This document shows positions 3,295-49,636 of a DNA stretch of 64,000 bases, in pieces; the first letter of the stretch is position 1, and each line of letters opens with the position of its first letter. Made by a program: the position numbers and the translations under genes. Source of the DNA: an uncultured Pirellulales bacterium (GTDB lineage Bacteria > Planctomycetota > Phycisphaerae > Sedimentisphaerales > SM23-30); assembly GCA_964580995.1 (NCBI GenBank), contig CAZOMV010000001.1:42840-106839 (forward strand), in the 5' to 3' direction. Under the pieces are notes generated by a model. The model ran no database searches. It saw nothing but the letters and a program-made list of their open reading frames with translations, and was not told the origin of the DNA.

Positions 3295-4017
3295 ATGTTT
3301 GTTGCTTCCTGGTACATTTATTTTCTCCTTTTGTTTTTTGTACTTTTCGTGTATTTTGTTCTCCCGTGGTTTTGTAGCCGCTGCCAAAGGAGAACCCTGG
3401 CCGCCAAAGCAAAAGTTAATAGAGTATTGGTCTTAAGTATAGATGATGGTCCCGGATGTAGGCTGACACCAAAGATATTGGATATTCTGGCCGAGAACGG
3501 TATCAAAGGATGTTTTTTTCTTTTAGGAAAAAATATTGATGGCCGTGAGGCACTTGTCCGTCGAATTGTAGTAGAGGGGCATGAGATAGGTTCGCATGGA
3601 TACGATCATCTTCATGCTTGGAGAGTTTGTCCTTGGAAGTGCATACAAGATATCAAAAAAAGCTGGCAGGTTATTGACGGTGCCCTTGGAATTCAGCGAG
3701 GCGTATATCCTTTTCGACCGCCTTATGGAAAACTCAACCTTGTAACACTGCTATATCTTTGGTATAAGCGAGTACCTATTGTTTTCTGGACAGTGGATAG
3801 CAACGATACCCGTGATTGGAACAACGACCAAAATTCCTTAGAGATATTGGCAAAGCAATTGGATCATGGGGGTGTTCTTCTGGTACACGATTTTGACCGT
3901 TCCACAAATCAATGTGAACAGTATGTTCTTGATGTGATAAAATTGGCCATTGATATAGCCCAAAAGAATAATCTTAAGATGGTCACCCAGTTTATGCTAA
4001 AAGATAAGTCTTCATGA
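3295..4017 (+). CDS. Polysaccharide deacetylase (NodB homology domain), N-terminal TM anchor
   Basis: Carries the NodB motifs LSIDDGP and GSHGYDH, plus a hydrophobic N-terminus. Confidence 0.8.
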   Translation: MFVASWYIYFLLLFFVLFVYFVLPWFCSRCQRRTLAAKAKVNRVLVLSIDDGPGCRLTPKILDILAENGIKGCFFLLGKNIDGREALVRRIVVEGHEIGSHGYDHLHAWRVCPWKCIQDIKKSWQVIDGALGIQRGVYPFRPPYGKLNLVTLLYLWYKRVPIVFWTVDSNDTRDWNNDQNSLEILAKQLDHGGVLLVHDFDRSTNQCEQYVLDVIKLAIDIAQKNNLKMVTQFMLKDKSS

Positions 4018-4979
4018 ATATACTCGATGTCTCTATCATTATCGTCAACTGGAACACCCGGGATATCCTGCGGGATTGTCTGCGTTCGGTGTATAATCAA
4101 ACACATAATATTAAATTTGAAGTAATTGTTGTGGATAATGCCTCTGCCGATGGCTCGGCGGAGATGGTTAAGTCCGAGTTTCCGCAGGTGATTTTGATCA
4201 AAAACCAGGAAAACCGCGGATTTGCCGCTGCCAATAATCAGGGAATGAAAATTGCAAAAGGGCGTTATATCCTGTTGCTTAATAGCGATACTGTTGTTCT
4301 GGATGGGGCGATACAAAAGACGGTTGCATTTGCAGATCAACATTCGGAAACTGCTGTGGTAGGGTGCAAAGTATTAAATCCGGACAAGACTCTTCAGCCA
4401 ACTTGCTTTATGTTTCCATCTATTTTGAATTTATTTTTATCCAGTACCTACTTATATAAATTATTCCCTAAAAGCCGTTTCTTCGGTCGCGAACGGATGA
4501 CTTGGTGGGATCGAAACGATGTCCGTGAGGTTGCTGTTGTAACCGGTTGTTTTATGCTGGTGCGGCGTGAAGCTATAGAAAAGATAGGATTAATGGATGA
4601 ATCCTACTTTATGTATGCGGAAGAAACCGACTGGTGCTATCGGTTTCTAAAGAATGGTTGGAAAACCCTTTTTTTCCCAAATGCGAATATTATTCACTTG
4701 GGGGGGCAAAGCAGCAAGCAGGTACAAATAAAATCTATAATTCAGCTTCGCCTGGGGATACTTCAATTTATTTGCAAGAACAGGAACACGGTTTATTTTT
4801 GGCTTTCCGGAGTTCTAATTTCGCTATTTTTTTTATTTCGCATCCCCTTGTGGTTATTGATGAGAATTGTAAAACCTGTTGATTGCGATAATCGAAATCG
4901 AGTTAAAGCCTATTTATCAGGATGGTATCGAGTAATAAAAGCAACCTTTAACCCTAAGCCGGAGAATTTTAAGTCATGA
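4014..4979 (+). CDS. Glycosyltransferase family 2
   Basis: VSIIIVNWNTRD...VVDNASADGS...LLLNSDT are GT2 signatures. There is a 4-nt overlap with the upstream gene. Confidence 0.85.
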   Translation: MNILDVSIIIVNWNTRDILRDCLRSVYNQTHNIKFEVIVVDNASADGSAEMVKSEFPQVILIKNQENRGFAAANNQGMKIAKGRYILLLNSDTVVLDGAIQKTVAFADQHSETAVVGCKVLNPDKTLQPTCFMFPSILNLFLSSTYLYKLFPKSRFFGRERMTWWDRNDVREVAVVTGCFMLVRREAIEKIGLMDESYFMYAEETDWCYRFLKNGWKTLFFPNANIIHLGGQSSKQVQIKSIIQLRLGILQFICKNRNTVYFWLSGVLISLFFLFRIPLWLLMRIVKPVDCDNRNRVKAYLSGWYRVIKATFNPKPENFKS

Positions 4980-6328
4980 ATTTTAAAGTTATGGCGCAAG
5001 GGGGTGTCAATCTGATTATTCGTAGATATATGGGGCCATTCTGGTATCGCAGAAGATGGCTGGAAAAAACCCAATGGTGGAGTCAGCAGGAATTGGAATC
5101 GCTCCAACTAATTCTGCTTAAACGGTTAATTTCACACGCATATAAAACTGTGCCGTATTATCGGATACTGATGGATAAACTGAAAATCAGAGTCGAGAAT
5201 ATAAAAACGCTTGATGATATAAAAATGTTTCCTGTGTTTACGAAAGAGAGTGCATTGAAAGCGGGTAATTCTATTGTTTCCAACAAATACCCTTCCTGGT
5301 TACTTCGAAAAACCCACACCAGTGGGACTACGGGAACTCCTTTAATGCTCCGCAGAGATATTTTTTCGATCGAAAATGAACATGCCTTTGTCAGACGTCA
5401 GTGGGATTGGGCCGGATTAGGTATTAATGATCGATGTGCTTATCTCAAAGGTAGGGTACTTGGGGAAAAAGACACAAAGAGTGGTCGTCTTTATGCGTAT
5501 GATCCAATCATGAAAGAATTACATTTGTCTACCTTTCATCTAACGTATAAAACGGCTAAAGAATACGCAGATATAATTAGTAGTTACGGTATAAAAGGCC
5601 TTGTGGGTTATCCATCTGCTGTTAATATACTCGCCAGAGGGTGTTTAGATTCAGGGATTAAACTAAAGTTTCAGTCGGTACTGGTTACTTCTGAGATACT
5701 CACCCAATCAACTAGAGATATAATTAGTAGAGCATTTGATTGTAAGGTATACGATTTTTATGGATCTGCCGAACGGGTAAGCTATATCCATACCTGCGAT
5801 TACGGAAGTTATCATATAGTACCGGAGTACGGCCTTCTGGAACTAATTCCAATTGAGAACAATAAGGATGGAGAATGTAGGTTAATTGCTACTGGTTTCT
5901 GGAACATGGCGATGCCGTTAATTAGATATGATACCGAAGATCTTGTGTATCCTTCCAATGAAACTTGCCAATGCGGTAGGGCATTCCCGGTGATCAAATC
6001 TATTATTGGTAGAGAAGGTGATGTTATTATCACACCTTCTGGCAAAGAGCTAGGTGTGTGCATTATTTCTTATATTGTATATGTTTTGTGTGGCGTCAAT
6101 AACATTATTGAAAGTCAAATCATCCAGGATAATCAAGATCATATTATAATTAACTATGTGCCTGATCAGAAATTCACTTCGGAAGACTTGTCGGAATTTA
6201 AGAATCGTTTAGCCAAATATTTACCAAATGACTTAAAGTTTACTCTACAAAAAGTAGATTCGGTTCAAAAAACAAATGCAGGAAAAATCAAGCCTGTTAT
6301 ATCCTTAATCAGTGGAATGGGAAAATGA
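4976..6328 (+). CDS. Adenylate-forming enzyme, phenylacetate-CoA ligase / CapK-like family
   Basis: TSGTTGTP AMP-binding motif, 450 aa, and a C-terminal KTNAGKIKP lysine motif. Translationally coupled to the GT2. Confidence 0.7.
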   Translation: MNFKVMAQGGVNLIIRRYMGPFWYRRRWLEKTQWWSQQELESLQLILLKRLISHAYKTVPYYRILMDKLKIRVENIKTLDDIKMFPVFTKESALKAGNSIVSNKYPSWLLRKTHTSGTTGTPLMLRRDIFSIENEHAFVRRQWDWAGLGINDRCAYLKGRVLGEKDTKSGRLYAYDPIMKELHLSTFHLTYKTAKEYADIISSYGIKGLVGYPSAVNILARGCLDSGIKLKFQSVLVTSEILTQSTRDIISRAFDCKVYDFYGSAERVSYIHTCDYGSYHIVPEYGLLELIPIENNKDGECRLIATGFWNMAMPLIRYDTEDLVYPSNETCQCGRAFPVIKSIIGREGDVIITPSGKELGVCIISYIVYVLCGVNNIIESQIIQDNQDHIIINYVPDQKFTSEDLSEFKNRLAKYLPNDLKFTLQKVDSVQKTNAGKIKPVISLISGMGK

Positions 6329-6600
6329 TTTTATTTTTGGCTCTTCTGAACAATTTGTGGGTAAATAAATTCAGCGAATTTAACTCAGCAAAATCGTTCG
6401 GGGCCCAGACTGCCAAATTGCCCCCCGTTAGTCCCAATTTGCCAGTCTGCCCAAGCGATTTTGCTGAGAATATCAAGCTGAATTTATTTGAACTAAAAAA
6501 ATATCAATAGAAAACGCCATACGTCATTATGAGTCAATAGGTTACGAGCGAAGCCTCCTAAATTCACCCACAAATTCTTTTGAAGAGGCAATAAAATATG
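6326..6600. repeat. Nested imperfect inverted repeat (about 275 nt palindromic element, MITE- or structured-RNA-like)
   Basis: Inner arms 6363-6420 and 6435-6489 are reverse complements with a few mismatches (aaataaattcagc...ctcagcaaaatcg...cagactgccaaattg). Outer arms 6326-6362 and 6566-6600 pair at about 75%. A 76-nt unpaired insert lies at 6490-6565. Confidence 0.7.
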
Positions 6601-6751
6601 CATCCAATGGATTCGCTTGTATCATAAGGTAGTATAAAAACAAATAGTTTCTTGAAGGGCCGTAGAATGTGAATTTTTAGTGGTTTAAGGTAAATCCTAT
6701 GGGCAATTTTGAAAAATAAAGCCAACATTATGACTGATTAAGAGCCAATAG

Positions 6752-7381
6752 ATGTTAAGATTCCTTGTAATATTAGTATATAAATATCTTAAGAAAAGAA
6801 AAATCCAGGATTTATTCGCGAAACTAATAGCCAGACTTGAAGGTGGGGAGATGTATTCAAAGACAATTCGCGAGATATATAGAAAATATCATGGCATTGA
6901 TGTCGGAAAGTATAGTTATGGTTGTTTTTTCAATGATAGCATAAGGCCTGGTGTAACAATTGGCCGTTATTGTTCAATTTCCAAGAATGTTTCCATTATG
7001 GATGCAAACCATCCTCTCCACCATAAATCAACCCATCCCTTTTTTTATGAACCAAACTATAAATACGTAAAAGAATCTTATGTTCAGCATATACCAATTA
7101 TAATTGAGAATGATGTATGGATCGGAAAAAACAGCATTATAGTACCCAATGTTAGGAAAATTGGAAATGGGGCGGTAATTGCGGCGGGGGCGGTAGTTAC
7201 TAAAGATGTTCCGAGTTATGCCATCGTAGCAGGTAACCCAGCTAAAGTTATTCGCTTTAGATTTCAACAAGAGGTTATTGATAAACTACAGAAAGAGCAG
7301 TGGTGGCAATATGACATCGAAAATTTAGTGCCAGATATCACAAAGTTTACACACTTCGAAGAGTATATTTGTTCTGATTAA
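6752..7381 (+). CDS. Hexapeptide-repeat (XAT/CatB-related) O-acetyltransferase
   Basis: [15 protein letters not shown] plus left-handed beta-helix repeats ([11 protein letters not shown].., [13 protein letters not shown]). Confidence 0.8.
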
Positions 7382-7390
7382 GTATATCTA

Positions 7391-8311
7391 ATGGAAATAA
7401 AAGATTTAACTTCAAATTATGTAATTGTTACTCCAGCTTATAACGAAGAAAAATACATTCGTCAAGCAATTGACAGTGTGCTTGCTCAAACTATTCAGCC
7501 GTTATTATGGGTAATTGTGGATGACAGTTCAATGGATCAGACTGCGGATATTATAAAGCGTTATGCTGCTAAATATCCATGGATTCGCTATGTATATAGA
7601 AAAAAAGAAAGCAACCAGAGTTACTATGCCAGTAATGTTTATGCAATATTTAAAGGATTAAAAGAAATAGAATTATCAGATTATGATTATCTGGCGATTT
7701 TGGATGCCGATATCGAATTACCTGCTAATTATTATGAGGAAATATTTAAGCTATTTACTCAAGACAAGCGGTTGGGTATTGCGTCGGGTCATTGTATGGA
7801 TCGAGTTGGGGATATATTAAAAAAAGGATTATACGATTGGAGGTCAGCGCCTAAAAATGTTATGGTTTTTCGTAGGCAATGTTATGAGGATATAGGTGGC
7901 TTCATTCCTTTAAAATATGCTGGAGAAGATACTTGTGCCTGTTTTATGGCACGAATGAAAGGTTGGACAACCTGGGCCACAACAAATCTGATGGTGATTC
8001 ATAATAAGCCAATGGGTACAGGTCATGTTAATAGTCGGATTAAAATTCGCTTTCGGCAAGGTCTCGGAGAGTATTTTTTAGCAACTCACCCATTATTTAT
8101 GCTTTTAAAATCATTGAGACGCTGTGTAAAAGAGCCTCCGTATTTTACTGGAGGATTGGCACTTTTGACCGGATTTGTTTATGCTCATTTTATAGGCCAG
8201 AAACGACAAATCTCAGATGAACTTGTGAAATATATTCGAAAAGAGCAACTTAGGCGTATATTTAGGGGAAATCAAGTTCCGGTTGAATTTGAGATAAAGA
8301 CGGAAATATGA
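7391..8311 (+). CDS. Glycosyltransferase family 2
   Basis: VIVTPAYNEEKYI...VIVDDSSMDQT...ILDADI are GT2 signatures. Confidence 0.8.
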   Translation: MEIKDLTSNYVIVTPAYNEEKYIRQAIDSVLAQTIQPLLWVIVDDSSMDQTADIIKRYAAKYPWIRYVYRKKESNQSYYASNVYAIFKGLKEIELSDYDYLAILDADIELPANYYEEIFKLFTQDKRLGIASGHCMDRVGDILKKGLYDWRSAPKNVMVFRRQCYEDIGGFIPLKYAGEDTCACFMARMKGWTTWATTNLMVIHNKPMGTGHVNSRIKIRFRQGLGEYFLATHPLFMLLKSLRRCVKEPPYFTGGLALLTGFVYAHFIGQKRQISDELVKYIRKEQLRRIFRGNQVPVEFEIKTEI

Positions 8312-8766
8312 ACAACCGAAAATTTTGCCTGGTAGCCTCTGCCGGCGGTCATATTACACAATTACTTAAACTGGCAGATTGCTGGAGCGGCTGTGAGGCG
8401 GTGGGGATTACAACTACGGAAGTGGTTCGGGCGAAACTAGAGCAATTCGGTCCGGTATATGTTCTCGGTGAGTCGAATCGTGAACATCTCCTCCGGGTGA
8501 TCCGGCAGATATTTCGCTGTTATCAAATTCTGTGTAAGGAAAAACCAAGTGTAATAATCAGTACCGGCGCTGCTGTTGGTTGTATTGCCTGTTTTCTCGG
8601 CAAATTCCTTGGTGCAAAAGTTATCTGGATTGACAGTATTACCAATGTGGAAAGATTGTCGCTTTCCGGCAGGATGGTACGTTATATTGCAGATCTGTTT
8701 TTAGTACAATGGCCGGAGTTGGCAACAAAATATAAAAGAGTTGAGTATGCGGGGGCGGTGATATGA
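8308..8766 (+). CDS. Alg14-like membrane-anchoring subunit of a split glycosyltransferase (PssD/Cps14F-like)
   Basis: 152 aa with LVASAGGHITQLLKL and a GAAVG motif. ATGA overlap with the upstream GT2, and 4-nt overlap with the Alg13-like partner. Confidence 0.65.
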   Translation: MNNRKFCLVASAGGHITQLLKLADCWSGCEAVGITTTEVVRAKLEQFGPVYVLGESNREHLLRVIRQIFRCYQILCKEKPSVIISTGAAVGCIACFLGKFLGAKVIWIDSITNVERLSLSGRMVRYIADLFLVQWPELATKYKRVEYAGAVI

Positions 8767-9242
8767 TCTTTCTTACTGTGGGAACGCAATTCCCTTTTGA
8801 CCGGTTGGTAAAAGAAGTGGATCAGGCAGTTGATCGTGGGTTGGTGGGCGATGAAATCTTTGCCCAAATCGGCCAAAGCAGTTATCAACCGCGCAATTTT
8901 CCGGCGGTTTCAACACTGGACAAACACGCTTTTGATGGTAAATTTCGGCAGGCTTCTGCTATCATCAGCCATGCCGGGATGGGTTCGATTACTATGGCGC
9001 TGGAATACCAGAAGCCGATGCTGGTCATGCCCCGCCGCAAGAAATTCCATGAGGTCGTGAACGATCATCAGATCAGTATCGCCAAAGAATATGAAAAGTC
9101 CGGTTATATCCTGGTTGCCTATTCCGAAGCTGAATTAGCCGATAAACTTGCTGATTTGAAAACATTCATCCCGAAAAGACGAGTGGCCCAGCCGGAAGCG
9201 GTAGTCAGGCGGATAAAAGATTATCTTGGTTCATTAGGTTGA
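8763..9242 (+). CDS. Alg13-like catalytic subunit (Glyco_tran_28 C-terminal domain; PssE/Cps14G-like)
   Basis: MIFLTVGTQFPFDRL...ISHAGMGSI is typical of the MurG/Alg13 C-terminal domain. Confidence 0.7.
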   Translation: MIFLTVGTQFPFDRLVKEVDQAVDRGLVGDEIFAQIGQSSYQPRNFPAVSTLDKHAFDGKFRQASAIISHAGMGSITMALEYQKPMLVMPRRKKFHEVVNDHQISIAKEYEKSGYILVAYSEAELADKLADLKTFIPKRRVAQPEAVVRRIKDYLGSLG

Positions 9243-9329
9243 GATTCCTACTCTATGAATGTTTGTAAAAATTGTCGGTGGCATATCTGATGGAATAATG
9301 GTTCTATCCCGATAACCCTAGAGGTCCCC

Positions 9330-10442
9330 ATGAAAAAACTAATCCACGTGGCGGGTGCCCGCCCGAATTTTGTAAAGATTGCCAGTATCATCAAAGCCTG
9401 CCAGGCTCGCCCGGAGCTAGACAATCTGCTGGTTCATACCGGTCAGCATTACAGTCCCCAGATGAGCGATTCTTTCTTCTGCGACCTGGGCATCCCGCAG
9501 CCGGATATCAATCTGGAGGTTGGCTCCGGCTCGCACGCCCAGCAGACGGCGGAGATCATGAAGCGGTTCGAGCCGGTCCTGCTGGAGCATCAGCCGGACG
9601 CGGTGTTGGTGGTGGGCGATGTGAATTCCACCGTGGCGTGCGTCTTGACGGCGGTGAAGCTGGGGATCCAAACGATCCATGTCGAGGCGGGCCTGCGCAG
9701 CCATGACCGGACTATGCCCGAGGAAATCAACCGGGTCGTGACCGACGCCATCAGCGACATCCTGTTTGTGACCGAACAAAGCGGCCTCGATAATCTGGTG
9801 CGGGAAGGCGTCGCCAGAGAGAAGATTCACCTGGTGGGCAATGTGATGATCGATACGCTGCTTCAGAACCGGGCGAAAGCCGATCAATCCCGGATTCGGG
9901 AAACACTCGGCCTGACCCAGGGTGAATTTGCGGTGATTACCATGCACCGTCCCTCCAATGTCGATAATCACCAGGTGTTCGGCCGGATTCTCGATGCCTT
10001 TGAGGTCATCCAGCGGGACATGAAAATGGTCTTTCCGGTCCACCCCCGGACCCTCAAAAACATGCAGTCGAACGGACTCTATGCCCGGATCAAGAGCCTG
10101 CCCAACTTTGTGCTGGCCGAACCGCTGGGGTATCTGGATTTCCTGAAACTGATGGCGGACGCCAGTATCATTATTACCGATTCCGGCGGGATCCAGGAGG
10201 AATCCACCATCCTGGGTATCCCCTGCCTGACGGTCCGCGAGAATACCGAGCGGCCCGTTACCATTACCAGCGGGACCAATCAACTGGTCGGGGTCCAGCC
10301 GGAAAATATCCTTGCCGGCTATCGCAAGGCCCGTGCGGGAGAAATCCCGGCCCGGGTGCCGCCGCTCTGGGACGGCAAGGCGGCCGAGCGGATCGCGAGG
10401 ATCCTGGCGGATATGCCGGACCGCCATGTTGCCAAAGGATAA
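9330..10442 (+). CDS. wecB: UDP-N-acetylglucosamine 2-epimerase (non-hydrolysing)
   Basis: Full-length match by eye: HVAGARPNFVKIA, HTGQHY, VHVEAGLRS, TDSGGIQEE. Confidence 0.92.
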   Translation: MKKLIHVAGARPNFVKIASIIKACQARPELDNLLVHTGQHYSPQMSDSFFCDLGIPQPDINLEVGSGSHAQQTAEIMKRFEPVLLEHQPDAVLVVGDVNSTVACVLTAVKLGIQTIHVEAGLRSHDRTMPEEINRVVTDAISDILFVTEQSGLDNLVREGVAREKIHLVGNVMIDTLLQNRAKADQSRIRETLGLTQGEFAVITMHRPSNVDNHQVFGRILDAFEVIQRDMKMVFPVHPRTLKNMQSNGLYARIKSLPNFVLAEPLGYLDFLKLMADASIIITDSGGIQEESTILGIPCLTVRENTERPVTITSGTNQLVGVQPENILAGYRKARAGEIPARVPPLWDGKAAERIARILADMPDRHVAKG

Positions 10443-12157: not shown

Positions 12158-12217
12158 GGTTTTGCTCGCTTTCTTTTTGTCTTGGTTTACAACATGTTTC
12201 CTGGAAAGTTGCGTACT

Positions 12218-13132: not shown

Positions 13133-13325
13133 AATAATTCTCCTTTTCTTTTCGACTGCAAAGTTTGCAATTGACGTTTCATAAATCCTTGACAATAAAA
13201 CATTTAAAAATTAAACGAATATGCTTTTTCCAATGGAGCCTGAAGCATTTTGCTGAAATAGAAAGTCAAATATTCTCACAATTTTTTCCTTCAAAAATCA
13301 GTAGCTAAAAATAACTGACATATTA

Positions 13326-13353
13326 AATATATACTGTGAGTTACATTTGTCAA
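13326..13353 (-). promoter_or_regulatory. Candidate sigma70 promoter for the nuclease operon (TTGACA-16-TATATT)
   Basis: On the minus strand, TTGACA lies at 13353-13348 and TATATT at 13331-13326, within an AT-rich divergent intergenic region. Confidence 0.35.
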
Positions 13354-13389
13354 ATAAAAAATGTTAAAAATAATTACTTTTTGATATTA

Positions 13390-13418
13390 TTGACTTATCC
13401 GTCGTTATAGGCTACATT
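13390..13418 (+). promoter_or_regulatory. Candidate sigma70 promoter for the repressor gene (TTGACT-17-TACATT)
   Basis: TTGACT at 13390-13395 and TACATT at 13413-13418. The -10 element overlaps the palindrome TACATttaacATGTA (13413-13427). Confidence 0.4.
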
Positions 13419-13458
13419 TAACATGTACTTCTCATAACCCGGTGACAGGAGATTACCA

Positions 13459-14085: not shown

Positions 14086-14291
14086 GTCTCAGACGAAAAA
14101 AAGGATACAGCATCCAAACCGCAGGACTCGGTTAATTTTTTTGCAATAAAAATTATTTCTCTTATTACGATCTGGCTTGCCAGTTTATAATAGATAATAG
14201 AGAAGTTTTTTCGGTCGGCGAACGGACGAAGCGGAAATCTTGGGATCGGGATAGGTGGTTACGCCGGCGCTAAGGAAAAGGAGTAGCACGA

Positions 14292-14834
14292 ATGATTTCG
14301 GAAAGGCAATTGAAAGCAAACCGGAGCAATGCGATGGCGTCCACGGGCCCGAAAACCGCATCCGGCAAAGAGAAGGTCTCTCAAAACGCCCGCAAGCACG
14401 GCCTGCTGTCCCAGCATGTCGTCATCTGTGATGAAAGCCAGGCCCAGTTTAACCGCTTTCGCCAGGAGCTGCTCGACCAACTGGAGCCGGTCGGGTCCCT
14501 GGAGGAAGTCCTGGCCGACCGGCTTGCCGCTTCTGTCTGGCGGCTCCATCGGGTCGGGCGCATTGAGGTGGAATTGTTGCAGGATATTTATTTGAGCGAA
14601 ATCAGGTCCGGAAGCGATAAAGACTCTGAGCTCCCCACCTTGGGCGAAGCGATACGTTCCGATTTGGTTAATCAGAGCACGCTGTCCAAGTTTCATCGGT
14701 ATGAAGCCCATATCGAACGAGGTCTTTTCCGCACTCTGCACGAGCTGCAGCGGCTCCAGGCCGCCCGCAAGGGCCAGCCGGTAACGGCGCCCGCAGTCCT
14801 CGATATCGATGTCACGGGCATACCGGAAGAGTAA
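14292..14834 (+). CDS. Conserved hypothetical protein (N-terminal ANRxNAxxSTGPKTxxGKxxxSxNAxKHGL motif)
   Basis: 180 aa with a GGAG SD upstream. I recall the N-terminal motif from uncharacterised proteins of several soil and aquatic phyla. The equal-length antisense ORF is judged spurious. Confidence 0.5.
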   Translation: MISERQLKANRSNAMASTGPKTASGKEKVSQNARKHGLLSQHVVICDESQAQFNRFRQELLDQLEPVGSLEEVLADRLAASVWRLHRVGRIEVELLQDIYLSEIRSGSDKDSELPTLGEAIRSDLVNQSTLSKFHRYEAHIERGLFRTLHELQRLQAARKGQPVTAPAVLDIDVTGIPEE

Positions 14835-15110
14835 AGAAATATTCATAAATATTTGATAATAAATTACTTATATTGACTTTGGAAGCTAGAGATAGGTGGC
14901 AGGTCTTTTCCGATTCAAGGTACGAGCGCCGTTTTACCCGCTGGTAAAAACAGGTGGTTTCCGGTGTGGATAACCAGCCACCACAGCGATGGACGCCGAT
15001 CCAAAAATTACCAAACAAACCCATTTGCGAAGTCAGGTATTCTTCTGTTGTCTGACACCGTAGATTACCGAGAACAGAACTTATCACACATCGGGTACTA
15101 CTTGTAAAAG

Positions 15111-17147
15111 ATGGCTCATCAATCCCATAATATTACGAATATCCAGGCGATCATCCTGGCCGGCCGGTCGGATTTCGGGCGGCGGCCTTTGCCGTCGCGG
15201 TTACCGCCGGCCCTGTGGCCGGTAGGGGGGCAGCCGGTCTTGGAGCGGCTGCTGCGGCATCTGGACTGCTGCGGGATCAGGCAGATCTCGATCTGCGGCA
15301 ACAGCGACGGGGCTATCCTGCGTCAGGCGGTAGAACGCATGGATGGGATCCGGGCGGCAGTGCGGTTTTCGCCGGAAATTTTGCCGCTGGGGCCGGCCGG
15401 TGTGATCGTCCGGACCGTTCAGCAGGCCCCGCATTCCCTGATCCTGCTGTGCAATGCCTGTACGGCCTGTCCGCCGGACCTGCGTTTTCTCATACAGGAG
15501 CATCAAAAGGCCCGAGCGGCCATGACTGTGGCCCTTAACCCCAAAGCCGCTGTCCTTAGTTCAACCGAGGCCGCCGATCTCTATCTGCTGGAACCGACGG
15601 TCCTGGAACAGATCCCCCGGGCCGGTTACTGTGATATTAAGGAAACCTTGATCCCGGCCCTGCTGCGGGCCGGCAAAACCGTACATGCCGTCCGGCTCCC
15701 CCAGCCGGTCGGCAATTTCCGCACCTGGTCCGGCTACCTGCGGGCTATGGCGGATTATCTGGAACAGCACCAACCCGACCAACCCGGCCAACCCGACCAA
15801 CCCGACCGGCCCGGCAAAAACTTCTCCGCCCCCCAGTCCCAAGCTCGCGATGGGGTCTGGGTCAGTCCGCGGGCGGAAGTCCATCCCAGTGCCCGGCTGT
15901 ACGGACCGGTTCTGGTCATGGAGGGTGCAATGGTCGCGGCCGACGCGGTCCTGGTCGGCCCGTGTATCCTCGAAAAAAATGCCGCCGTTGGTCCCGGCAG
16001 CCTGCTAACCGGCAGTGTGCTCTGGCCGGAGGCCCGGATCGGCAGCGGCTCTCAGGTGCGGGACTGTGTCGTGGAACACCAGGCGGTAGTGCCGGATGGA
16101 AAAATTCGGGAGGAACAAATGGTACAAGTAGAGCGAAAAGGTGTTTTACCCCAATGGATCAACCGGGCGGCCGAAAATATGAATAAAAAGATAAACAAGA
16201 TTTTCTCGCTGCCGCCGGAGGTAAAAGACGCAAAGGGTCTGAAACCACTGTACGGGATTCCATCGGGTGCGTTCAGCCGTTCCCGCTGGCCCCTCCTTTG
16301 GGTGGTTCCGGTCCTGCTGGCCTTTCTGTGGTCCCACTGGCCGACCCTGACGGACCTCTGGAAAATCTGGATGCAGAGCGATGAGTATTCCTGCGGACTG
16401 CTGGTCCCCTTCATGGCTATTTATATCGTCTGGTCCCGGCGGGGCCAGTTGGCCCAGTGTCTCTCCCATCCTTCCTGGTGGGGCTTGGCGGCCTTCCTGG
16501 CTGCCCAAAGCCTGCGGTATTTTGGCTTGTTTTTCATGTACGGTTCCGCGGAGCGGCTTTCCCTGGTGGCCAGTATCGCCGCCCTGGTGTGGTTCCTGTT
16601 CGGCGGGGCGGTATTCCGTAAATTGATTCCCATATTTATCTTTCTGGGCCTGATGCTGCCCTTACCCAAAACGCTGGAGGCCGCCATCACTATGCCTTTG
16701 CAGAGTATGGCCACCACCTCCGCGGGCTTCTGTCTGGAAATGATCGGCTATGATATCCGGATCGAAGGCAACATCATCCATCTGGGCCAGACCACCGTGG
16801 CGGTGGCGGAAGCCTGCAACGGCCTGCGGATGGTCACCTCCTTCTTCGTGATCAGCGGGCTGGTAATCCTGCTGGTGAACCGCCGCTGGTGGGAGAAAGG
16901 GATCCTGCTGCTCTCGGTTCTGCCGATCGCCCTGTTATGTAATACGATTCGTCTGGCGATTACCTCCATCGCCTTTACCATACTCAAGGGGGAAAAATGG
17001 GAACAACTGTTTCATGATTTCGGGGGCTATGCCATGATGCCGCTGGCGCTGGCGCTGGTGGTTCTGGAATTGTGGATACTCAAAAAAATCTTTACCGTGC
17101 CTGATGAAGAAACCAATCAGGAAATCCTGATTACCTCTGCCAGGTAA
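15111..17147 (+). CDS. Fusion protein: nucleotidyltransferase-like + left-handed beta-helix N-terminal module, C-terminal exosortase (EpsH/Xrt family)
   Basis: The C-terminal roughly 290 aa carry exosortase hallmarks: DEYSCGLLVP, AVAEACNGLRM (Cys-x-G-x-R), LCNTIRLA and FHDFGGYAMM, with multiple TM segments. The N-terminal roughly 380 aa resemble sugar-1-P nucleotidyltransferase (IILAGRSDFGRRPL...) followed by hexapeptide repeats. It is a single uninterrupted frame. Confidence 0.8.
   Translation: MAHQSHNITNIQAIILAGRSDFGRRPLPSRLPPALWPVGGQPVLERLLRHLDCCGIRQISICGNSDGAILRQAVERMDGIRAAVRFSPEILPLGPAGVIVRTVQQAPHSLILLCNACTACPPDLRFLIQEHQKARAAMTVALNPKAAVLSSTEAADLYLLEPTVLEQIPRAGYCDIKETLIPALLRAGKTVHAVRLPQPVGNFRTWSGYLRAMADYLEQHQPDQPGQPDQPDRPGKNFSAPQSQARDGVWVSPRAEVHPSARLYGPVLVMEGAMVAADAVLVGPCILEKNAAVGPGSLLTGSVLWPEARIGSGSQVRDCVVEHQAVVPDGKIREEQMVQVERKGVLPQWINRAAENMNKKINKIFSLPPEVKDAKGLKPLYGIPSGAFSRSRWPLLWVVPVLLAFLWSHWPTLTDLWKIWMQSDEYSCGLLVPFMAIYIVWSRRGQLAQCLSHPSWWGLAAFLAAQSLRYFGLFFMYGSAERLSLVASIAALVWFLFGGAVFRKLIPIFIFLGLMLPLPKTLEAAITMPLQSMATTSAGFCLEMIGYDIRIEGNIIHLGQTTVAVAEACNGLRMVTSFFVISGLVILLVNRRWWEKGILLLSVLPIALLCNTIRLAITSIAFTILKGEKWEQLFHDFGGYAMMPLALALVVLELWILKKIFTVPDEETNQEILITSAR
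15771..15815 (+). repeat. 9-nt tandem repeat (caacccgac x about 5) encoding a QPDQPGQPDQPDRPG linker
   Basis: Read directly from the sequence. It lies between the nucleotidyltransferase-like and LbH parts. Confidence 0.9.
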
Positions 17148-17148
17148 A

Positions 17149-17176
17149 TAACCTCCATTTTGCAAAACCTTACTAA
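17149..17176. repeat. Copy 1 of conserved motif with palindromic TTTTGCAAAA core
   Basis: taacctccaTTTTGCAAAAccttactaa lies between the exosortase stop and the BY-kinase start. Confidence 0.6.
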
Positions 17177-17217
17177 TTCATTCAGATCAGGAACTATTGA
17201 AAGGGAGAAATAAAACC

Positions 17218-19533
17218 ATGGATCATGTAACCAAATATAATCCCCAGGCGTACCCTACGGATTATCCATCTTTGGAAGGCCCTGCCGGCTCTGCCGCACC
17301 ATCCCCGCTGGGGGTGCTGCGTGCCCTAAGCCGCCGCTGGTATATCGTTTTGCTGACTTTTGTGTTGCTGGCTGGGGCGGGCCTGCCGGCGGTCTGGTTT
17401 CTGGTGAAGCCGAAATATCAAGCCGCCGCCGCGATTCGGGTGGCCCCGATCATCCCCAGTATCCTCTTCAGTGACAAGGATTCGGAAGGGGTCATTCCGA
17501 TGTACGAAAGTTTCATGAATACCCAGGCCGATATTATCGTCAGCGACCAGGTGGTGCAGCGGGTGGCGGATGAGCTGGGGGATAAAAAGCTCTCTTTGTT
17601 TGAGGAAAACGATCTGATTGCCCGTTACATTACTAAAAAAGAAGTCAAGACCATCAATCCCGTGGTGGCCCTCAAGCAGGCGGTCCAGGACGGAGTGATT
17701 GCGGTCATACCCGGCCGCAAAAGCGAGCTGATCAAGATTACCATGGATAGCCTCAATGCCAGAGAAGCCGAGCAGGTGGTGGATGCCTTTGTCCGGGCCT
17801 ATATGAACATCGAAGGTTCCCGCTCTGCCCAGGGAGGCAATCAGAATATCGAGGTTCTGGAAAACGAACGCAAGGTGATCCAGGAGAAAATTCAGCGGCA
17901 GCAGGAAACGATCCGGAAAATGGGGGAGGAATATGGCACGATCGCCCTGACCGGCCGGCAGGATATGATGCTGGCCCGGGTTTCTGACCTGCGCCAGCAG
18001 TTGACCCAGATCGAATCGAGGAAACTGGCCTTGCAGTCGCTGGTCCAGCTTTCCGAACAGACCAAGGGCCAGACTATTCTGCCGGAGAAACTTTTGGAAC
18101 GGCGTTATGATTTTATTAATAGCGATCCCACCTTACAAATGCTGACCCAGCGGGTGGCCCAGCTCGAAGAGAGCCTGGTAATGGCCGAGCAGACCCTGGC
18201 CCCGACCAATCCGGAAATCCAGGAGCAAACGAAGATTTTAGAGGCTTTTAAGGAACGGGCCAAAAAACAGCGCGAGGATCTGGAAAAAACCTTCGATGAC
18301 ATGGTAGCCAAGGAGCTTACCGAGAACAGCCAGATGCAACTGGATAAGGCAAAGGCCGAACTGGAACAGATTGTCGTGCAGGAGAATATCCTGCGGGATA
18401 ATCTGGCCAAGGAAAATGCCGACACCATTGAAGTGGGGCGGAAACAATTGGCGATCCAGGAACAGCAGGACCAGCTGGCCATGAATCAGGAATTGTATGA
18501 AACGATCCGCCGCCGCATCCAGGAATTGGAGGTGGAGCGGAAACGGCCCGCCCGCATTTCGGTGGCCTTTAATGCCTCCAGCATGCCCATGCCGAGTAAG
18601 CGGATCAAACTCCTGGCTGCCGTACTGTTCGGGGCCCTGGCCGGCGGGATGTTCCTGGCCTTCTTACGCGACAAGGCCGATAAAAACATGTACACCCCGG
18701 AGGATATTGTTCGCTCGATTGGGGTGGCCGTGGTGGGTACCACGACTGCTCAAATGAACCAGAAAGACAAAGCGGCGGCCCGCCAGCAGATCGTCAGTGA
18801 TTATCAAACCATCCGCTCCAACCTGCGATTGCTCAGCGACGGCCGGATCCCCAAAATCCTGGTGGTCACCAGTCCGGGGATGGGGGAAGGGAAAACCACC
18901 CTGTCCACCAACCTGGCCTTGAGTCTGGCCCAGGCCGGCGATAAAGTTCTGCTGATCGACGGGGATTTACGCAAGCCGGATATCGCCCGTTTATTGAAAC
19001 TGCCGGAGTGTTTCTGGGGCTTGCAGGATGTCTTGCTGGGCTTGCGGAAGTGGGAAGAGGCCATCCATACCCTTCCCGAAAGCGGTTTGCAGGTAATGAT
19101 TGCCGACCGGCGAAATAATGGCCAGGCCATAGAGCAGCTTTCAAGACCGGAGACCGCGGATATTATCCGGCAGATCAGTCAGAAATACGATCATGTGATT
19201 ATTGATACGCCTCCGGTCCTGGCTATTCCGGATGCCTTGCAATGGTCAAGAATCGCCGATGCCGTGGTTATCAGCAGTTTGTCGGGTCGGTCCAACCGTG
19301 CGGAGTTGCAGGAAACCTTTCAGCGGCTCTCCCAGATCCATGCCCGGATCCTGGGGAATGTTCTTGCCAATGTGCCGTTCCGCCACAGCTACAGTCGGTA
19401 TGGATATGGCTATGGGTATGGACACGGCGATAACAACCAGACCCCTCCTGACGACAAACAAATCGATATGAGACAACTGATGCTCTTACTCCAACCGCAA
19501 GAGCAGAATTCGGATGCTCCGGTTTCCCGATAG
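17218..19533 (+). CDS. Polysaccharide chain-length determinant (Wzz/GumC-like) fused to BY-type tyrosine autokinase
   Basis: Two TM segments flank a long coiled periplasmic region. Walker A SPGMGEGKTT, A' LIDGDLRKP and B VIIDTPP are present, with a C-terminal Tyr cluster SYSRYGYGYGYGHG. The ATG at 17218 follows AAGGGAGA; the track's ORF starts at the TTG at 17197. Confidence 0.88.
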   Translation: MDHVTKYNPQAYPTDYPSLEGPAGSAAPSPLGVLRALSRRWYIVLLTFVLLAGAGLPAVWFLVKPKYQAAAAIRVAPIIPSILFSDKDSEGVIPMYESFMNTQADIIVSDQVVQRVADELGDKKLSLFEENDLIARYITKKEVKTINPVVALKQAVQDGVIAVIPGRKSELIKITMDSLNAREAEQVVDAFVRAYMNIEGSRSAQGGNQNIEVLENERKVIQEKIQRQQETIRKMGEEYGTIALTGRQDMMLARVSDLRQQLTQIESRKLALQSLVQLSEQTKGQTILPEKLLERRYDFINSDPTLQMLTQRVAQLEESLVMAEQTLAPTNPEIQEQTKILEAFKERAKKQREDLEKTFDDMVAKELTENSQMQLDKAKAELEQIVVQENILRDNLAKENADTIEVGRKQLAIQEQQDQLAMNQELYETIRRRIQELEVERKRPARISVAFNASSMPMPSKRIKLLAAVLFGALAGGMFLAFLRDKADKNMYTPEDIVRSIGVAVVGTTTAQMNQKDKAAARQQIVSDYQTIRSNLRLLSDGRIPKILVVTSPGMGEGKTTLSTNLALSLAQAGDKVLLIDGDLRKPDIARLLKLPECFWGLQDVLLGLRKWEEAIHTLPESGLQVMIADRRNNGQAIEQLSRPETADIIRQISQKYDHVIIDTPPVLAIPDALQWSRIADAVVISSLSGRSNRAELQETFQRLSQIHARILGNVLANVPFRHSYSRYGYGYGYGHGDNNQTPPDDKQIDMRQLMLLLQPQEQNSDAPVSR

Positions 19534-21226
19534 CCAAACGTCTTGTCCAATGCAGCAAATTGTAATTCATAGAAAAGATTTCCCTGAATCCCCCAGTGGT
19601 ATCCTGCGCACGGTTTTGTCCAGTGAATCCCTGGCCGCCCTGACTCTGGCGGGTCTTCGAAAACTGCATTCTCTGGATGGTTTCCCCAAGAACCCTCTTT
19701 TTGTAATACCTCGGCAATGGCAGGGCAAACCCGTCTCGGATCAAGCCCGAATTCAATATTACGAGCAAACGATACCTGTTATGCCGCCGGGGAGAAAGCA
19801 CGGGAAAACCGGCCCCTGGCAGATCATCACCAATGGCCGTTATGTTACGGATATCGATGCCCAATGGCTTTTTGATATGGTCAATGATTTGGATGCTCCG
19901 GTGCTGGCGGTCCAGGCCGATTCGGAACTAACCGCCTTCCGGGAAAAAATACGTTTTACTTCCCAGGGTACGATCGCGGGTTTCCGCCGCTGGTATGCGG
20001 ATACGGCCAAAGAATGTGCCGTGCCGGCGGATTGGCCGCCGCATTTTCTGGTGAAGGCCGATATCCTTCCGAAATTGCTGGTGGATGGAACCCTTCCCCT
20101 GCATTTCTCCGAGGTTGTATCCCGGTGTACCGCCCAGTCCTTGCCCCTGCGCAGTATTCGGCTGGCTGGTGTTACGCTGGATCTGGAAACCGAGGAAGGT
20201 TTTCTTGCCTTGATCGATCATTACTTCAGGACTGCCTGGCCGAAAATAGCGCGGCGAATTCCCTCGCCTCCGGCAAACCAGGCAAACATAGACGATTCGG
20301 TGCGTATCTTCGGTAATGTCTGGATCGGTCAGGAGGTGTGCATTCGTCCCGGGGTCATACTCATTGGTCCGGCGGTGATTGGGGATCGGGTGGAACTGGG
20401 CGCGGGTGTTACTATCCAATCCTCCGTAGTAGGCCCCGGCCTTACGGTGCCTGAAAACTATTTTATAAAGAACCGGGTCCTTACCCGAGATCTCCCCGTC
20501 GGGGATAAACTCTCCCCAGCTTCTCCGGTACGGGGATCCCGCCGATTTCACCTTCTCGCCCGGGCGTTTAACCAAAAAAAACGGCAGGATACCTTTCGTA
20601 CCTGGCCCCGCATTTCCTATGCCGCTATCGGGAAACCCGTGCTTGATAGGGCGGCGGCCCTGCTGATCCTCCTGCTCTTTGTCCCTGTTCTTCCGTTTAT
20701 AGCCCTGGCCGTGAAACTTTCCTCACCCGGGCCGGTCTTTTTCCGGCACAAGCGGCAGGGATTGCACGGGAAAGAGTTCGGCTGCCTGAAATTCCGTACC
20801 ATGATCCAGGGGGCGGACGATCTCCAGCGAAAACTCCGCAAGATCAGCCAGGTGGACGGCCCCCAGTTCAAAATAGACGATGATCCGCGGGTCAGCCCGG
20901 TCGGAAAATTTCTGCGGGATACCTATCTGGATGAGATTCCGCAATTTTTCAATGTTCTGCTGGGCCAGATGAGCCTGATCGGCCCCCGGCCCTCCCCGGT
21001 CCCGGAAAATACCTTGTGCCCACCCTGGCGCGATGCGCGGTTATCCGTGCGGCCGGGTGTCACCGGTCTCTGGCAGATATGCCGTACCCGCCAGGACGGG
21101 CAGGATTTTCAGGAGTGGATCCATTACGATATAAAATATGTCAAAAATCTCTCCTTCCGTCTGGATGGGTGGATTTTTTGGCAGACCGTCAAAAAAATGG
21201 TCAAAGAATTTGCCCGGCAATTCTGA
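19514..21226 (+). CDS. Priming sugar transferase (bacterial sugar transferase/WbaP-EpsB type) with a long N-terminal extension containing an LbH domain
   Basis: C-terminal motifs: PGPVFFRHKRQGLHGKEFGCLKFRTM...DEIPQFFNVLLGQMSLIGPRP. N-terminal hexapeptide repeats: VRIFGNVWIGQEVCIRPGVILIGPAVIGDRVELGAGVTIQSSVVGPG. Alternative ATG at 19550. Confidence 0.85.
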   Translation: MLRFPDSQTSCPMQQIVIHRKDFPESPSGILRTVLSSESLAALTLAGLRKLHSLDGFPKNPLFVIPRQWQGKPVSDQARIQYYEQTIPVMPPGRKHGKTGPWQIITNGRYVTDIDAQWLFDMVNDLDAPVLAVQADSELTAFREKIRFTSQGTIAGFRRWYADTAKECAVPADWPPHFLVKADILPKLLVDGTLPLHFSEVVSRCTAQSLPLRSIRLAGVTLDLETEEGFLALIDHYFRTAWPKIARRIPSPPANQANIDDSVRIFGNVWIGQEVCIRPGVILIGPAVIGDRVELGAGVTIQSSVVGPGLTVPENYFIKNRVLTRDLPVGDKLSPASPVRGSRRFHLLARAFNQKKRQDTFRTWPRISYAAIGKPVLDRAAALLILLLFVPVLPFIALAVKLSSPGPVFFRHKRQGLHGKEFGCLKFRTMIQGADDLQRKLRKISQVDGPQFKIDDDPRVSPVGKFLRDTYLDEIPQFFNVLLGQMSLIGPRPSPVPENTLCPPWRDARLSVRPGVTGLWQICRTRQDGQDFQEWIHYDIKYVKNLSFRLDGWIFWQTVKKMVKEFARQF

Positions 21227-29326: not shown

Positions 29327-30064
29327 ATGAAGCCAGCCCGCCTGTTGCTGCTGCTGAGTTTATTGATGGTTCTTGCCGGTTTTTCCGGTTGTTTTTCTTC
29401 TTCCGCAAAAGATATTGAGGCTTTTGTCAAACCCTACCAGCAGGATGTGACGGCCGAACAGTATGTTTTGCAGCCGCCGGATGAAATTGAAATCCATTCC
29501 GCCAAAATACCGGAAATCAACCTCCAGCGTCAGCGAATCCGTCCGGATGGCCGGGTGGCCTTCGAAAATCTGGGGGTATTTAAGGTAGCTGGCAAAACCC
29601 CGGAAATGGTCTCGGATATGCTGCAGGAGAAAGCGGTCACACTCTATTCCCTGAAAGGGGACGATCCCATCGAGGTCCGGGTTACGGTTTTCAAAAGCAA
29701 AGTGTATTATGTAGTGGGAGAAGTGCGTACCCCCGGTCCCAAGGTTTTTACCGGACGCGATACCCCCTTGACCGCGATTGCCGAAGCCAATCCGGAGGTT
29801 ACCGGCTGGACGGATAGAATCCAGGTGGTCCGGCCTTCGGTGGATCCGAATGTCAAACCGAAAATATTTGAAATTAAATATAAAGACATGATCAAGCGTG
29901 GAGATACCAGCAAGAATGTGCTCTTGCAGGAAGGGGACATTATATATGTACCGCCGACCCCGCTGGCGGCCGTTGCCATGGTCATTGCGGAGTTTGTACG
30001 CCCGATCGGTGCAGCCCTTTCTCCGGTCAGCCAGGTATATTATCTTCAAAGAATGGGAGAATAA
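29327..30064 (+). CDS. Polysaccharide export lipoprotein (Wza-like: Poly_export + SLBB)
   Basis: Lipobox LAGFSGC. Also PDEIEIH...QRIRPDGRV and a soluble-ligand-binding beta-grasp (SLBB)-like LLQEGDIIYVP. Confidence 0.85.
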   Translation: MKPARLLLLLSLLMVLAGFSGCFSSSAKDIEAFVKPYQQDVTAEQYVLQPPDEIEIHSAKIPEINLQRQRIRPDGRVAFENLGVFKVAGKTPEMVSDMLQEKAVTLYSLKGDDPIEVRVTVFKSKVYYVVGEVRTPGPKVFTGRDTPLTAIAEANPEVTGWTDRIQVVRPSVDPNVKPKIFEIKYKDMIKRGDTSKNVLLQEGDIIYVPPTPLAAVAMVIAEFVRPIGAALSPVSQVYYLQRMGE

Positions 30065-48502: not shown

Positions 48503-49636
48503 ATGAAATATCCAATAGTAAAGATATGCTTGCTATTCAGTTTGTTATCCGCTGATTTGTGTTATTCTTATGAGATCATCAACCTTACACAAGATTTGTC
48601 TTCCTACAATCGGAATCCAAAGTCAGACGGAAATATGGTCGCCTGGGAAACGAATTCGGGTATTTATTTCTATAATGGAAATTCCAGTCAATGCATCAGC
48701 AGCTTTTTTAGTTATTTGGGCGGCATAAGTGGCGATCATGTTGCTTTTAATAGTGGCAGTTCGTGGTCTTCTAATCCATATCACTATTACAATGGAACCA
48801 CAAGCCCATTGTTGGTTGACAGTTTGCACCATTCTCCGCCAGATGTTTGCGGGGATCTTGTTGCCTGGCAAGGAAAAGGCACTTCAGCGCAAACGGATTA
48901 TGAAGTATTAATGTTCGATGGCCAGCAGGTAAAGCAATTAACCAATGATAATTATGAGGACTTTCATGTAAGGGTAGGCGATGGGATCATCACATGGACA
49001 AAAAGAGTTCCCCAGCCCAGCGGATTTTCAAAAAGAATACTTTACAAATACGATGTCGCTTCCGATACCACGGAAGTATTAGGGGAAGGATTTCTGAAAA
49101 TTGATGGACGAACTTGTGCCTGGGGAGAAGGATCTACTATCCAAGTCAATGATGACTCAGGAACATGGCAACTTACAGAATCACCTATTCCCAGCATGCA
49201 TTTAAACATGTCGGTCATTGACATTTCTGGTTCCTATATAGCATGGGCCGAAAATAATATGTTTGACGACACTACCTCTATCAAAATTTATGATGGCCAA
49301 GAAATACATATTTTTATGGAAAATATAAATTTGGATAAGATTACAGCGTGTCGCGTTGATAATGGAAAAATAGCCTGGATTGATAACGATTCTTCCAGTT
49401 TATTCTTTCAAGATCTTGCAACCGGCTATACAGAGCTGATAGCCTCTGGAGATATGATGAGTTTAAATTTTAGTGATAACAATATTGTTTGGGAGCAACA
49501 TCAAAATAATAGATACGATATCATGATGGTGACCATCCCCGAACCCGCTACCCTTTCCCTACTTGCTTTTGGAACGATGCTGGCAACTGGAAGGAGAAGA
49601 ATCAGGATAATGAGATCCAATAACGGACTCTTGTAA
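48503..49636 (+). CDS. PEP-CTERM-anchored secreted protein (unknown beta-rich ectodomain)
   Basis: Signal peptide MKYPIVKICLLFSLLSADLCYS. C-terminal IPEPATLSLLAFGTMLATGRRR. AT-rich gene. Confidence 0.8.
   Translation: MKYPIVKICLLFSLLSADLCYSYEIINLTQDLSSYNRNPKSDGNMVAWETNSGIYFYNGNSSQCISSFFSYLGGISGDHVAFNSGSSWSSNPYHYYNGTTSPLLVDSLHHSPPDVCGDLVAWQGKGTSAQTDYEVLMFDGQQVKQLTNDNYEDFHVRVGDGIITWTKRVPQPSGFSKRILYKYDVASDTTEVLGEGFLKIDGRTCAWGEGSTIQVNDDSGTWQLTESPIPSMHLNMSVIDISGSYIAWAENNMFDDTTSIKIYDGQEIHIFMENINLDKITACRVDNGKIAWIDNDSSSLFFQDLATGYTELIASGDMMSLNFSDNNIVWEQHQNNRYDIMMVTIPEPATLSLLAFGTMLATGRRRIRIMRSNNGLL

Follow-up and report, generated by a model that had tools for sequence, protein, structure and literature searches.

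Architecture and conservation of the fusion gene

The 64,000-nucleotide stretch analyzed here (the window; contig CAZOMV010000001.1 of assembly GCA_964580995.1, positions 42,840 to 106,839, labelled as an uncultured Pirellulales bacterium and placed by GTDB in the Phycisphaerae, Sedimentisphaerales, SM23-30) carries a gene in which an N-terminal module resembling sugar-nucleotide pyrophosphorylases is joined to an exosortase. It is the first gene of a tight operon that continues with a Wzz-type chain-length determinant fused to a bacterial tyrosine (BY) autokinase (Wzz-BYK), a priming monotopic phosphoglycosyltransferase (PGT), and a tetratricopeptide repeat (TPR) protein (Table 1). The N-terminal module (N-module) comprises a nucleotidyltransferase (NT)-like domain and a left-handed beta-helix (LbH), and a homologous module is found on the PGT. 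A preliminary description of this DNA had reported one continuous frame joining the two parts, and this proved correct: the open reading frame (ORF) opens with ATG and runs uninterrupted to its end. All motifs cited there were located in the protein, i.e. ILAGRSDFGRRPL (amino acids, aa, 15-27), SDEYSCGLLVP (423-433), EACNGLRM (567-574), CNTIRLA (610-616), FHDFGGY (634-640), and MNKKINK, which begins with Met357 (nucleotide, nt, 16179).

Table 1. Features of the fusion gene, its operon and associated genes in the window (BY, bacterial tyrosine; EPS, exopolysaccharide; HTH, helix-turn-helix; TM, transmembrane)
Position	Strand	Feature	Length or residues	Remarks
15111..17147	+	Fusion ORF: pseudo-nucleotidyltransferase, LbH, linker and exosortase	678 codons	
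15141..15770	+	NT-like domain (GMPP/eIF2B-type, Rossmann-like)	aa ~11-220	AlphaFold, Foldseek, profile vs. PDB, columns of 90 homologs
15771..15848	+	Disordered interdomain loop	aa 221-246	
15849..16106	+	LbH (hexapeptide) domain, non-catalytic GMPPB_C/eIF2B type	aa ~247-332	Pfam LbH_EIF2B, Hexapep_GlmU, Hexapep; PF25087 GMPPB_C in homologs
16107..16286	+	Variable basic linker	aa ~333-392	Contains Met357
16287..17090	+	Polytopic exosortase domain	aa ~393-660	Cys569, Arg614, His635 intact
17197..19533	+	Wzz-type chain-length determinant fused to BY-tyrosine autokinase	778 aa	Between the two fusion genes; 20-nt overlap with next gene; cytoplasmic kinase domain aa ~530-778
19514..21226	+	Second fusion: NT-like (aa ~14-241), LbH (aa ~254-331), Bac_transf (aa 374-564)	570 aa	
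21275..25492	+	Giant TPR protein, PrsT-like	1405 aa	TIGR02917 296 bits, cut-off 312
29327..30064	+	Wza-like polysaccharide export protein		Sub-threshold match to XrtA/PEP-CTERM export protein model
3295..10442	+	Upstream EPS genes: polysaccharide deacetylase, GT2 glycosyltransferases, AMP-ligase, hexapeptide acetyltransferase, PssD/PssE-type glycosyltransferase pair, WecB epimerase		
12218-13195	-	PD-(D/E)XK nuclease		Within the 10742-14846 block
13525-14085	+	HTH and S24 LexA-like repressor		Within the 10742-14846 block
14292-14834	+	Uncharacterized protein	180 aa	Within the 10742-14846 block
48503..49636	+	Candidate substrate: beta-propeller protein with C-terminal PEP-CTERM signal (TIPEP, TM helix, RRR)		TIGR02595 20.3 bits, cut-off 16

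The same architecture recurs widely. In a search of 5.8 billion proteins, with results returned as clusters, ~95 clusters share the ~640-680-aa arrangement at 37-57% identity; they derive from metagenome-assembled genomes (MAGs) of Sedimentisphaerales, Phycisphaerales and Planctomycetota, and the sole name attached to them is 'exosortase'. When a single genome was scanned for each GTDB species, 393 related stretches were obtained; the best 80 loci are all full-length fusions, closed MAG chromosomes among them. Clusters and loci alike belong to the Planctomycetota, mostly to MAGs of Phycisphaerae/Sedimentisphaerales. This full-length recurrence in independent assemblies excludes chance and mis-assembly and rules out a fusion created during assembly or gene calling. 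Met357, put forward earlier as a separate start, is not conserved, being present in 9 of the 90 full-length homologs in which residue columns were counted, so separate translation from this position is likewise rejected as a conserved feature; a few relatives are naturally split, as described below. Taken together, and with these split versions on the other side, an error that joined adjacent genes, or an exosortase translated from Met357, has a negligible probability as an explanation of the gene. A promoter/terminator scan of 14000-26800 gave no excess over the shuffled expectation.

Conservation is uneven along the protein. Mean identity among the 90 homologs is 44% in the NT domain vs. 14% in the linker (aa 333-392), whose median length is 58 aa, so purifying selection is clearly at work on the NT domain. 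Since no signal peptide is present and the linker ahead of the first TM helix is basic, the N-module should be cytoplasmic. The interdomain loop that separates NT and LbH carries an insert, QPDQPGQPDQPD (Q-P-D/G repeat), which is encoded by a tandem repeat of 9 bp (ACCAACCCG, 4.3 copies, 15769-15807). It has no counterpart in the aligned homologs and is thus a recent, window-specific expansion of a disordered loop.

Fold and catalytic residues of the N-terminal module

Single-sequence hidden Markov model comparisons identified the N-terminal part only weakly: NTP_transf_3 gave 21.2 bits (cut-off 27) and the NCBIfam model man1P_GTase_Rv 63 bits (cut-off 440), and no NT model of Pfam or NCBIfam reached its cut-off on the window protein. 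Hexapep_GlmU passed with 26.5 bits (cut-off 23.3), and precomputed PF00483 matches exist for many homologs. A family profile compared with PDB sequences was, in contrast, unambiguous, matching tlr0611 (E=3e-27), the GMPP-type enzyme 7whr (E=9e-25) and eIF2B-epsilon (E=6e-21). An AlphaFold model was computed from the family alignment and is confident over the NT domain (predicted local distance difference test, pLDDT, ~75-90) and the exosortase (~80-90); its Foldseek matches in PDB, ranging from E=2e-14 to 1e-9, begin with tlr0611 (8x7s, E=2e-14) and the human GMPPA/GMPPB complex (7d72, E~1e-12) over ~330-350 columns and include Arabidopsis VTC1, VTC1-KJC2, GlmU, and eIF2B gamma/epsilon. The earlier assignment of this part to an NT followed by a hexapeptide LbH is thus borne out for the first ~340 aa, and the N-module has the GDP-mannose pyrophosphorylase/eIF2B fold.

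The NT domain bears a family signature of its own, ILAGxRDFGRCPL...LWPV, GTAG and GYCDIKE. Canonical catalytic positions were read from the profile alignment to GMPP-type enzymes and then counted in the homologs. The G-x-G-T-R loop with its catalytic arginine is gone, the aligned residues being D21 (76/90), F22 (84/90) and G23 (83/90), and R24, the neighbor of the lost arginine, is kept in 77/90. At column 33, the position of the catalytic lysine in the P-K-x-L motif, lysine never occurs (T45 R12 P11 A9 V6 I2). The first Mg-binding aspartate (column 117) is replaced by S, G, N or A, with D in 0/90, and the second (column 205) is retained as D in just 50/90, the window protein having T there. 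Moreover, the N-module lacks a stretch of ~30 residues that the target enzymes have between the two HMM domains (~149-179); we take it to be the segment with the (V/F)EKP sugar-phosphate motif. The GTAG motif (G94, A96, G97) and the family-specific GYCDIKE (G172, D175, K177, E178) are nevertheless invariant or nearly so.

The degenerate glycine loop noted previously is therefore a family-wide trait, accompanied by loss of the catalytic lysine, the Mg-binding aspartate and the sugar-phosphate segment, and the non-catalytic role suggested for the module gains support from it. Because the canonical catalytic residues are lost throughout the family, we regard the N-module as a conserved pseudoenzyme, joined here to an exosortase that is presumably active. 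An acyltransferase activity of the LbH was considered and is unlikely, as this domain is short (~85 aa) and matches the non-catalytic eIF2B-type LbH of Pfam, with GMPPB_C matches in homologs.

The exosortase domain

The C-terminal half is, as first described, a canonical polytopic exosortase. PF09721 (Exosortase_EpsH) matches aa 403-656 with E=3e-56 and 191 bits (cut-off 25.7), and the cut-offs of the generic NCBIfam exosortase model TIGR02602 (131.9 vs. 105.55 bits) and of the TIGR04178 signature (54.8 vs. 23 bits) are passed. The putative catalytic triad C569, R614 and H635 is invariant in 90/90 homologs, and the protein is presumably active as a PEP-CTERM-cleaving cysteine protease/transpeptidase. 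No NCBIfam model of a named subclass (XrtA, B, C, D, N, T, V, W etc.) reaches its cut-off, the best scores being those of XrtD (161.6 bits, cut-off 400), XrtW (142.7, cut-off 425), XrtA (132.5, cut-off 208) and XrtV (106, cut-off 313); the fusion is thus not a named exosortase subclass.

The context expected of an exosortase is present in the window, with flanking exopolysaccharide (EPS) genes and a candidate PEP-CTERM substrate ~30 kb downstream. This substrate gene lies divergently to an ORF at 47350-47859 (-), and both products have PEP-CTERM-type tails. The latter resembles the QFxxD PEP-CTERM family and lacks a start codon in the examined stretch; it may be a fragment or part of a longer gene.

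A second fusion and the conserved gene order

The product of 19514-21226 is a priming PGT with a canonical catalytic domain (PF02397 Bac_transf, 199.8 bits, cut-off 27). The full-length WbaP, WcaJ and EPS_sugtrans models stay below cut-off because the match is limited to this domain, in front of which lies an NT-like and LbH module. The AlphaFold model is confident over aa 14-241 and the LbH, and Foldseek again returned NT+LbH structures, namely ST0452, tlr0611, GMPPA/B, ADP-glucose pyrophosphorylase and eIF2B. Both fusions have their LbH at nearly the same residues, and the NT-like domain of the PGT fusion has no P-loop at all. Comparison of the two N-module profiles with hhalign gave 99.0% probability and E=2.5e-18 over 228 columns (aa 78-328 vs. 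76-330) in near-identical register. With BLASTP the two modules align only in the LbH (21% identity, E=4e-5), and homology of the NT domains becomes visible only by profile-profile comparison. The PGT-fusion family is large and restricted to the same taxa as the exosortase fusion.

Gene order is strongly conserved. Counting only loci with sufficient downstream DNA, Wzz-BYK is the next gene after the exosortase fusion at 71/71 loci; the PGT fusion then follows at 63 of 64 and the TPR gene at 55 of 56. The same order is retained around the most distant homologs.

Further observations concern individual loci. At L071 (CP070675.1, 10001-13381) the downstream gene encodes a shorter, Wzz-like protein of 451 aa in which no kinase part was detected, and is followed by unrelated ORFs. 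Two MAGs carry two whole cassettes each on separate contigs (L015 and L050, VRUL01...; L012 and L077, DAOWID01...), which suggests duplicated sorting/EPS systems within one genome. Many cassette contigs are labelled 'uncultured Pirellulales' (L003, L007, L010 and other third-party annotation MAG loci) and one 'Lentimicrobiaceae' (L025), whereas the better-curated ones belong to Phycisphaerae/Sedimentisphaerales; the former labels may be placeholders or binning errors.

Split and free-standing modules

An exhaustive search with an N-module profile retrieved 718 cluster representatives at E<1e-30, many of them only ~320-370 aa long. The architectures of 150 representative matches were sorted by regular expressions, a crude procedure whose outcome is used qualitatively only. 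Two free-standing modules with the DFGRC/GY(C/F)D(I/V)KE signature, P0218 (locus L084) and P0217 (L083), are encoded directly 5' of a separate exosortase gene. The 133-nt spacer at L084 contains stops in all frames and hence marks a genuine split, whereas a single frameshift could account for the separation at L083.

Another set of free-standing modules is more distantly related and shows a 'GVHxW' loop. Its members in two lineages (L086-88 and L091-92) are encoded immediately 5' of Wzz-BYK, LbH-PGT and Wza, and no exosortase was detected nearby in the 10-21 kb of sequence. As these free modules occupy the same slot before Wzz-BYK and the LbH-PGT, the N-module seems tied primarily to the kinase and the PGT fusion, and its attachment to the exosortase was apparently added later, across the Phycisphaerae. 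A further NT, LbH and Bac_transf fusion, P0096 (561 aa, metagenomic), scores 94 bits with PF00483, and its canonical lysine is gone (LPAPLVPI); it may be an intermediate stage in the degeneration of the PGT-fused module.

Flanking genes

Between the EPS glycosyltransferase genes and the exosortase fusion lies a block (10742-14846) with the nuclease, the LexA-like repressor and the 180-aa protein of Table 1. In relatives L001 and L002 an Alg14/GT28_C pair stands directly 5' of the fusion, so the block looks like an insertion. On the other side of the operon, 25850-26695 (-) encodes a 281-aa protein with N-terminal TM helices, a charged coiled-coil tail and no family match; similar genes occur near the cassette in L002, L056 and L081. 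Just past the cassette, 26786-29089 (-) encodes a parallel beta-helix protein of 767 aa in which Chlamydia-PMP repeats occur together with a 'choice-of-anchor Q' domain and no PEP-CTERM tail is recognisable. Beside the Wza-like exporter, the product of 30158-30766 (+) is a CPBP/CAAX-type intramembrane protease resembling myxosortases; it scores 80.6 bits with Mrt_core (cut-off 100) and 33.6 bits with TIGR03008 pepcterm_CAAX (below cut-off). Since EpsH-CAAX protease fusions have been described (Haft 2006, PMC1569441), this protein may represent an additional processing enzyme in the system.

Proposed role of the module and alternative explanations

NT+LbH proteins repeatedly form active/inactive or inactive/inactive paralogue pairs through these domains, e.g. 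GMPPA-GMPPB and VTC1-KJC2. From this analogy, together with the paired homologous modules and their near-obligate synteny, we propose that the modules of the exosortase and the PGT hetero-associate. The dead N-module would be a docking and/or regulatory domain rather than an enzyme, and its partner would be the homologous dead module on the PGT encoded two genes downstream; the two would meet at the cytoplasmic face and anchor the exosortase to the priming PGT in a complex that may also include the Wzz/BY-kinase, whose gene lies between the two fusions. Processing of PEP-CTERM proteins would thereby be linked physically to the place where assembly of the lipid-linked EPS repeat unit begins. 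We give this proposal, in which PEP-CTERM sorting is coupled to EPS initiation, about an even chance of being correct; mutual binding of the modules, like any ligand binding, is something we infer. In eIF2B gamma/epsilon, which are non-catalytic, the pyrophosphorylase-like and LbH domains are both needed for mutual binding (PMC3318697). GMPPA, itself non-catalytic, binds GDP-mannose and acts as a regulator of its paralogue GMPPB (PMC11228364), and there is a precedent for control of EPS synthesis through protein-protein interaction at the PGT that initiates it (PMC12802240). More speculatively, and with perhaps half the confidence given to docking as such, the dead modules and the BY-kinase may form a heteromeric cytoplasmic clamp that docks the exosortase on the PGT, so that cleavage would take place where synthesis of the undecaprenyl-phosphate-linked glycan begins.

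Several observations weigh against the docking proposal. The two N-modules are only ~16-21% identical, so that the case for their pairing comes from analogy and synteny alone. Locus L071 has an exosortase fusion without an adjacent PGT fusion, the sole exception among the 64 loci, and co-occurrence in an operon is also expected of proteins that merely share a pathway. The LbH of the exosortase fusion is modelled at low confidence (pLDDT ~45-65). Finally, retention of GTAG and GYCDIKE could mean that a small-molecule pocket is conserved, i.e. that the module is a sensor.

Such a sensor acting in cis is what the preliminary description had in mind: the module would bind a nucleotide or NDP-sugar and allosterically gate the exosortase according to EPS-precursor supply, with no need for the PGT module. 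The near-invariance of the nucleotide-contacting GTAG and of GYCDIKE, the purifying selection on the NT domain relative to the linker, and the precedent of GMPPA, which binds GDP-mannose (PMC11228364), all agree with it. A canonical NDP-sugar site is, however, unlikely after loss of the phosphate-binding loop, the catalytic lysine, the Mg-binding aspartate and the ~30-aa sugar-phosphate segment, and gating in cis accounts neither for the homologous module that the PGT carries at 63 of 64 loci nor for the operon slot shared by free-standing homologs without a nearby exosortase. We hold sensing in cis to be unlikely, with a chance of roughly one in five; it is compatible with docking, and the two are not mutually exclusive. 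The homologous PGT module and the free forms in the same operon slot argue for protein-protein coupling to the machinery of EPS initiation rather than, or besides, metabolite sensing.

It is also conceivable that the module serves as a scaffold for homo-oligomerization only, di- or trimerizing the exosortase and, independently, the PGT without cross-talk. Self-association is common among LbH domains, GlmU and ST0452-type enzymes, which form trimers, are among the structural matches, and the two modules are only distantly similar; yet the strict co-occurrence and gene order of both fusions, as well as the free NT-LbH and LbH-PGT pairs of other lineages, are explained more simply by hetero-association. 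We hold the scaffold reading to be slightly less probable than the sensor. That the module is still an enzyme, synthesizing NDP-sugars or transferring nucleotidyl or acyl groups by non-canonical residues and channelling the product to the pathway, seems quite improbable. The fold is intact, many homologs have PF00483 scores, and R24 persists beside the lost catalytic arginine; against this, none of the 90 homologs has K at the catalytic lysine position or D at that of the first aspartate, the segment with the EKP motif is missing, the LbH fits the non-catalytic eIF2B/GMPPB_C models better than acyltransferase models, and the PGT-fused paralogue lacks any P-loop.

Significance

The prediction of exosortases in 2006 was based on the strict association of these proteins with PEP-CTERM proteins and EPS loci across genomes (Haft 2006, PMC1569441). 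The acceptor of their substrates, whether they act as one-step transpeptidases, and the reason for the EPS link are open in the field (PMC1569441; Haft 2023 preprint). A soluble, expressible exosortase module with a counterpart on the glycan-initiating enzyme and with natural split and free forms offers a handle on this problem. A physical complex of exosortase and PGT, with or without the kinase, is directly testable, which brings an open question within reach of interaction experiments. If the tentative clamp were true, the lipid-linked glycan or EPS of the partner pathway could be the acceptor of exosortase substrates. The proteins and their Pfam matches are already in databases, where the architecture is visible and uninterpreted; our analysis defines an unnamed exosortase subclass, widespread in Phycisphaerae, which NCBIfam currently labels as a generic exosortase only. 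Pyrophosphorylase-like pseudoenzymes serve as regulatory or assembly subunits in GMPPA, eIF2B gamma/epsilon, KJC and GlgD, and the fusions would add a bacterial, membrane-tethered example to this theme.

Comparison with known systems

In the searchable literature library, no relevant link was found between exosortases and nucleotidyltransferases, pyrophosphorylases, hexapeptide modules or Phycisphaerae. Among described systems, the locus resembles XrtA-type PEP-CTERM/EPS loci (Haft 2006, PMC1569441) in having an eight-TM EpsH-type exosortase with a Cys/Arg/His triad, accompanied by a chain-length determinant/tyrosine kinase, a PF02397 sugar transferase, a PrsT-like TPR protein, a Wza-like exporter, a polysaccharide deacetylase and glycosyltransferases, with PEP-CTERM substrates in the genome. 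Unlike XrtA, the window exosortase scores below the XrtA cut-off (132.5 vs. 208 bits) and those of all other named Xrt models and carries a ~390-aa cytoplasmic N-terminal extension, and its PGT has the NT+LbH module in place of the usual N-terminal TM/Rossmann region. The exosortase fusions described in 2006 have a C-terminal EpsI-like region or are CAAX-protease-like (Haft 2006, PMC1569441), in agreement with the preliminary description, which had named EpsI-type and not NDP-sugar-enzyme-like partners; the CAAX-protease-like type is added by that source.

With GMPPA/GMPPB and plant VTC1/KJC2 the N-modules share the two-domain NT+LbH fold (Foldseek E~1e-12). In the GMPPA/GMPPB case an inactive paralogue pairs with its related partner as a regulator (PMC11228364; GMPPA does not figure in PMC9956253), whereas in the window both paralogues appear inactive, both are fused to membrane enzymes, and the N-module lacks the sugar-phosphate segment. 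Another parallel is eIF2B gamma/epsilon, non-catalytic proteins that form a heterodimer through both domains (PMC3318697): LbH_EIF2B matches both window proteins, and the family profile matches eIF2B-epsilon itself (E=6e-21). Unlike the system described here, eIF2B is a eukaryotic soluble translation factor with neither a membrane partner nor a polysaccharide context. The PGT, for its part, has the canonical Bac_transf catalytic domain (199.8 bits) of WbaP/WcaJ-type large PGTs (Lg-PGTs), and differs from them in that its accessory domain is an apparent NT+LbH pseudoenzyme of the kind also carried by the exosortase.

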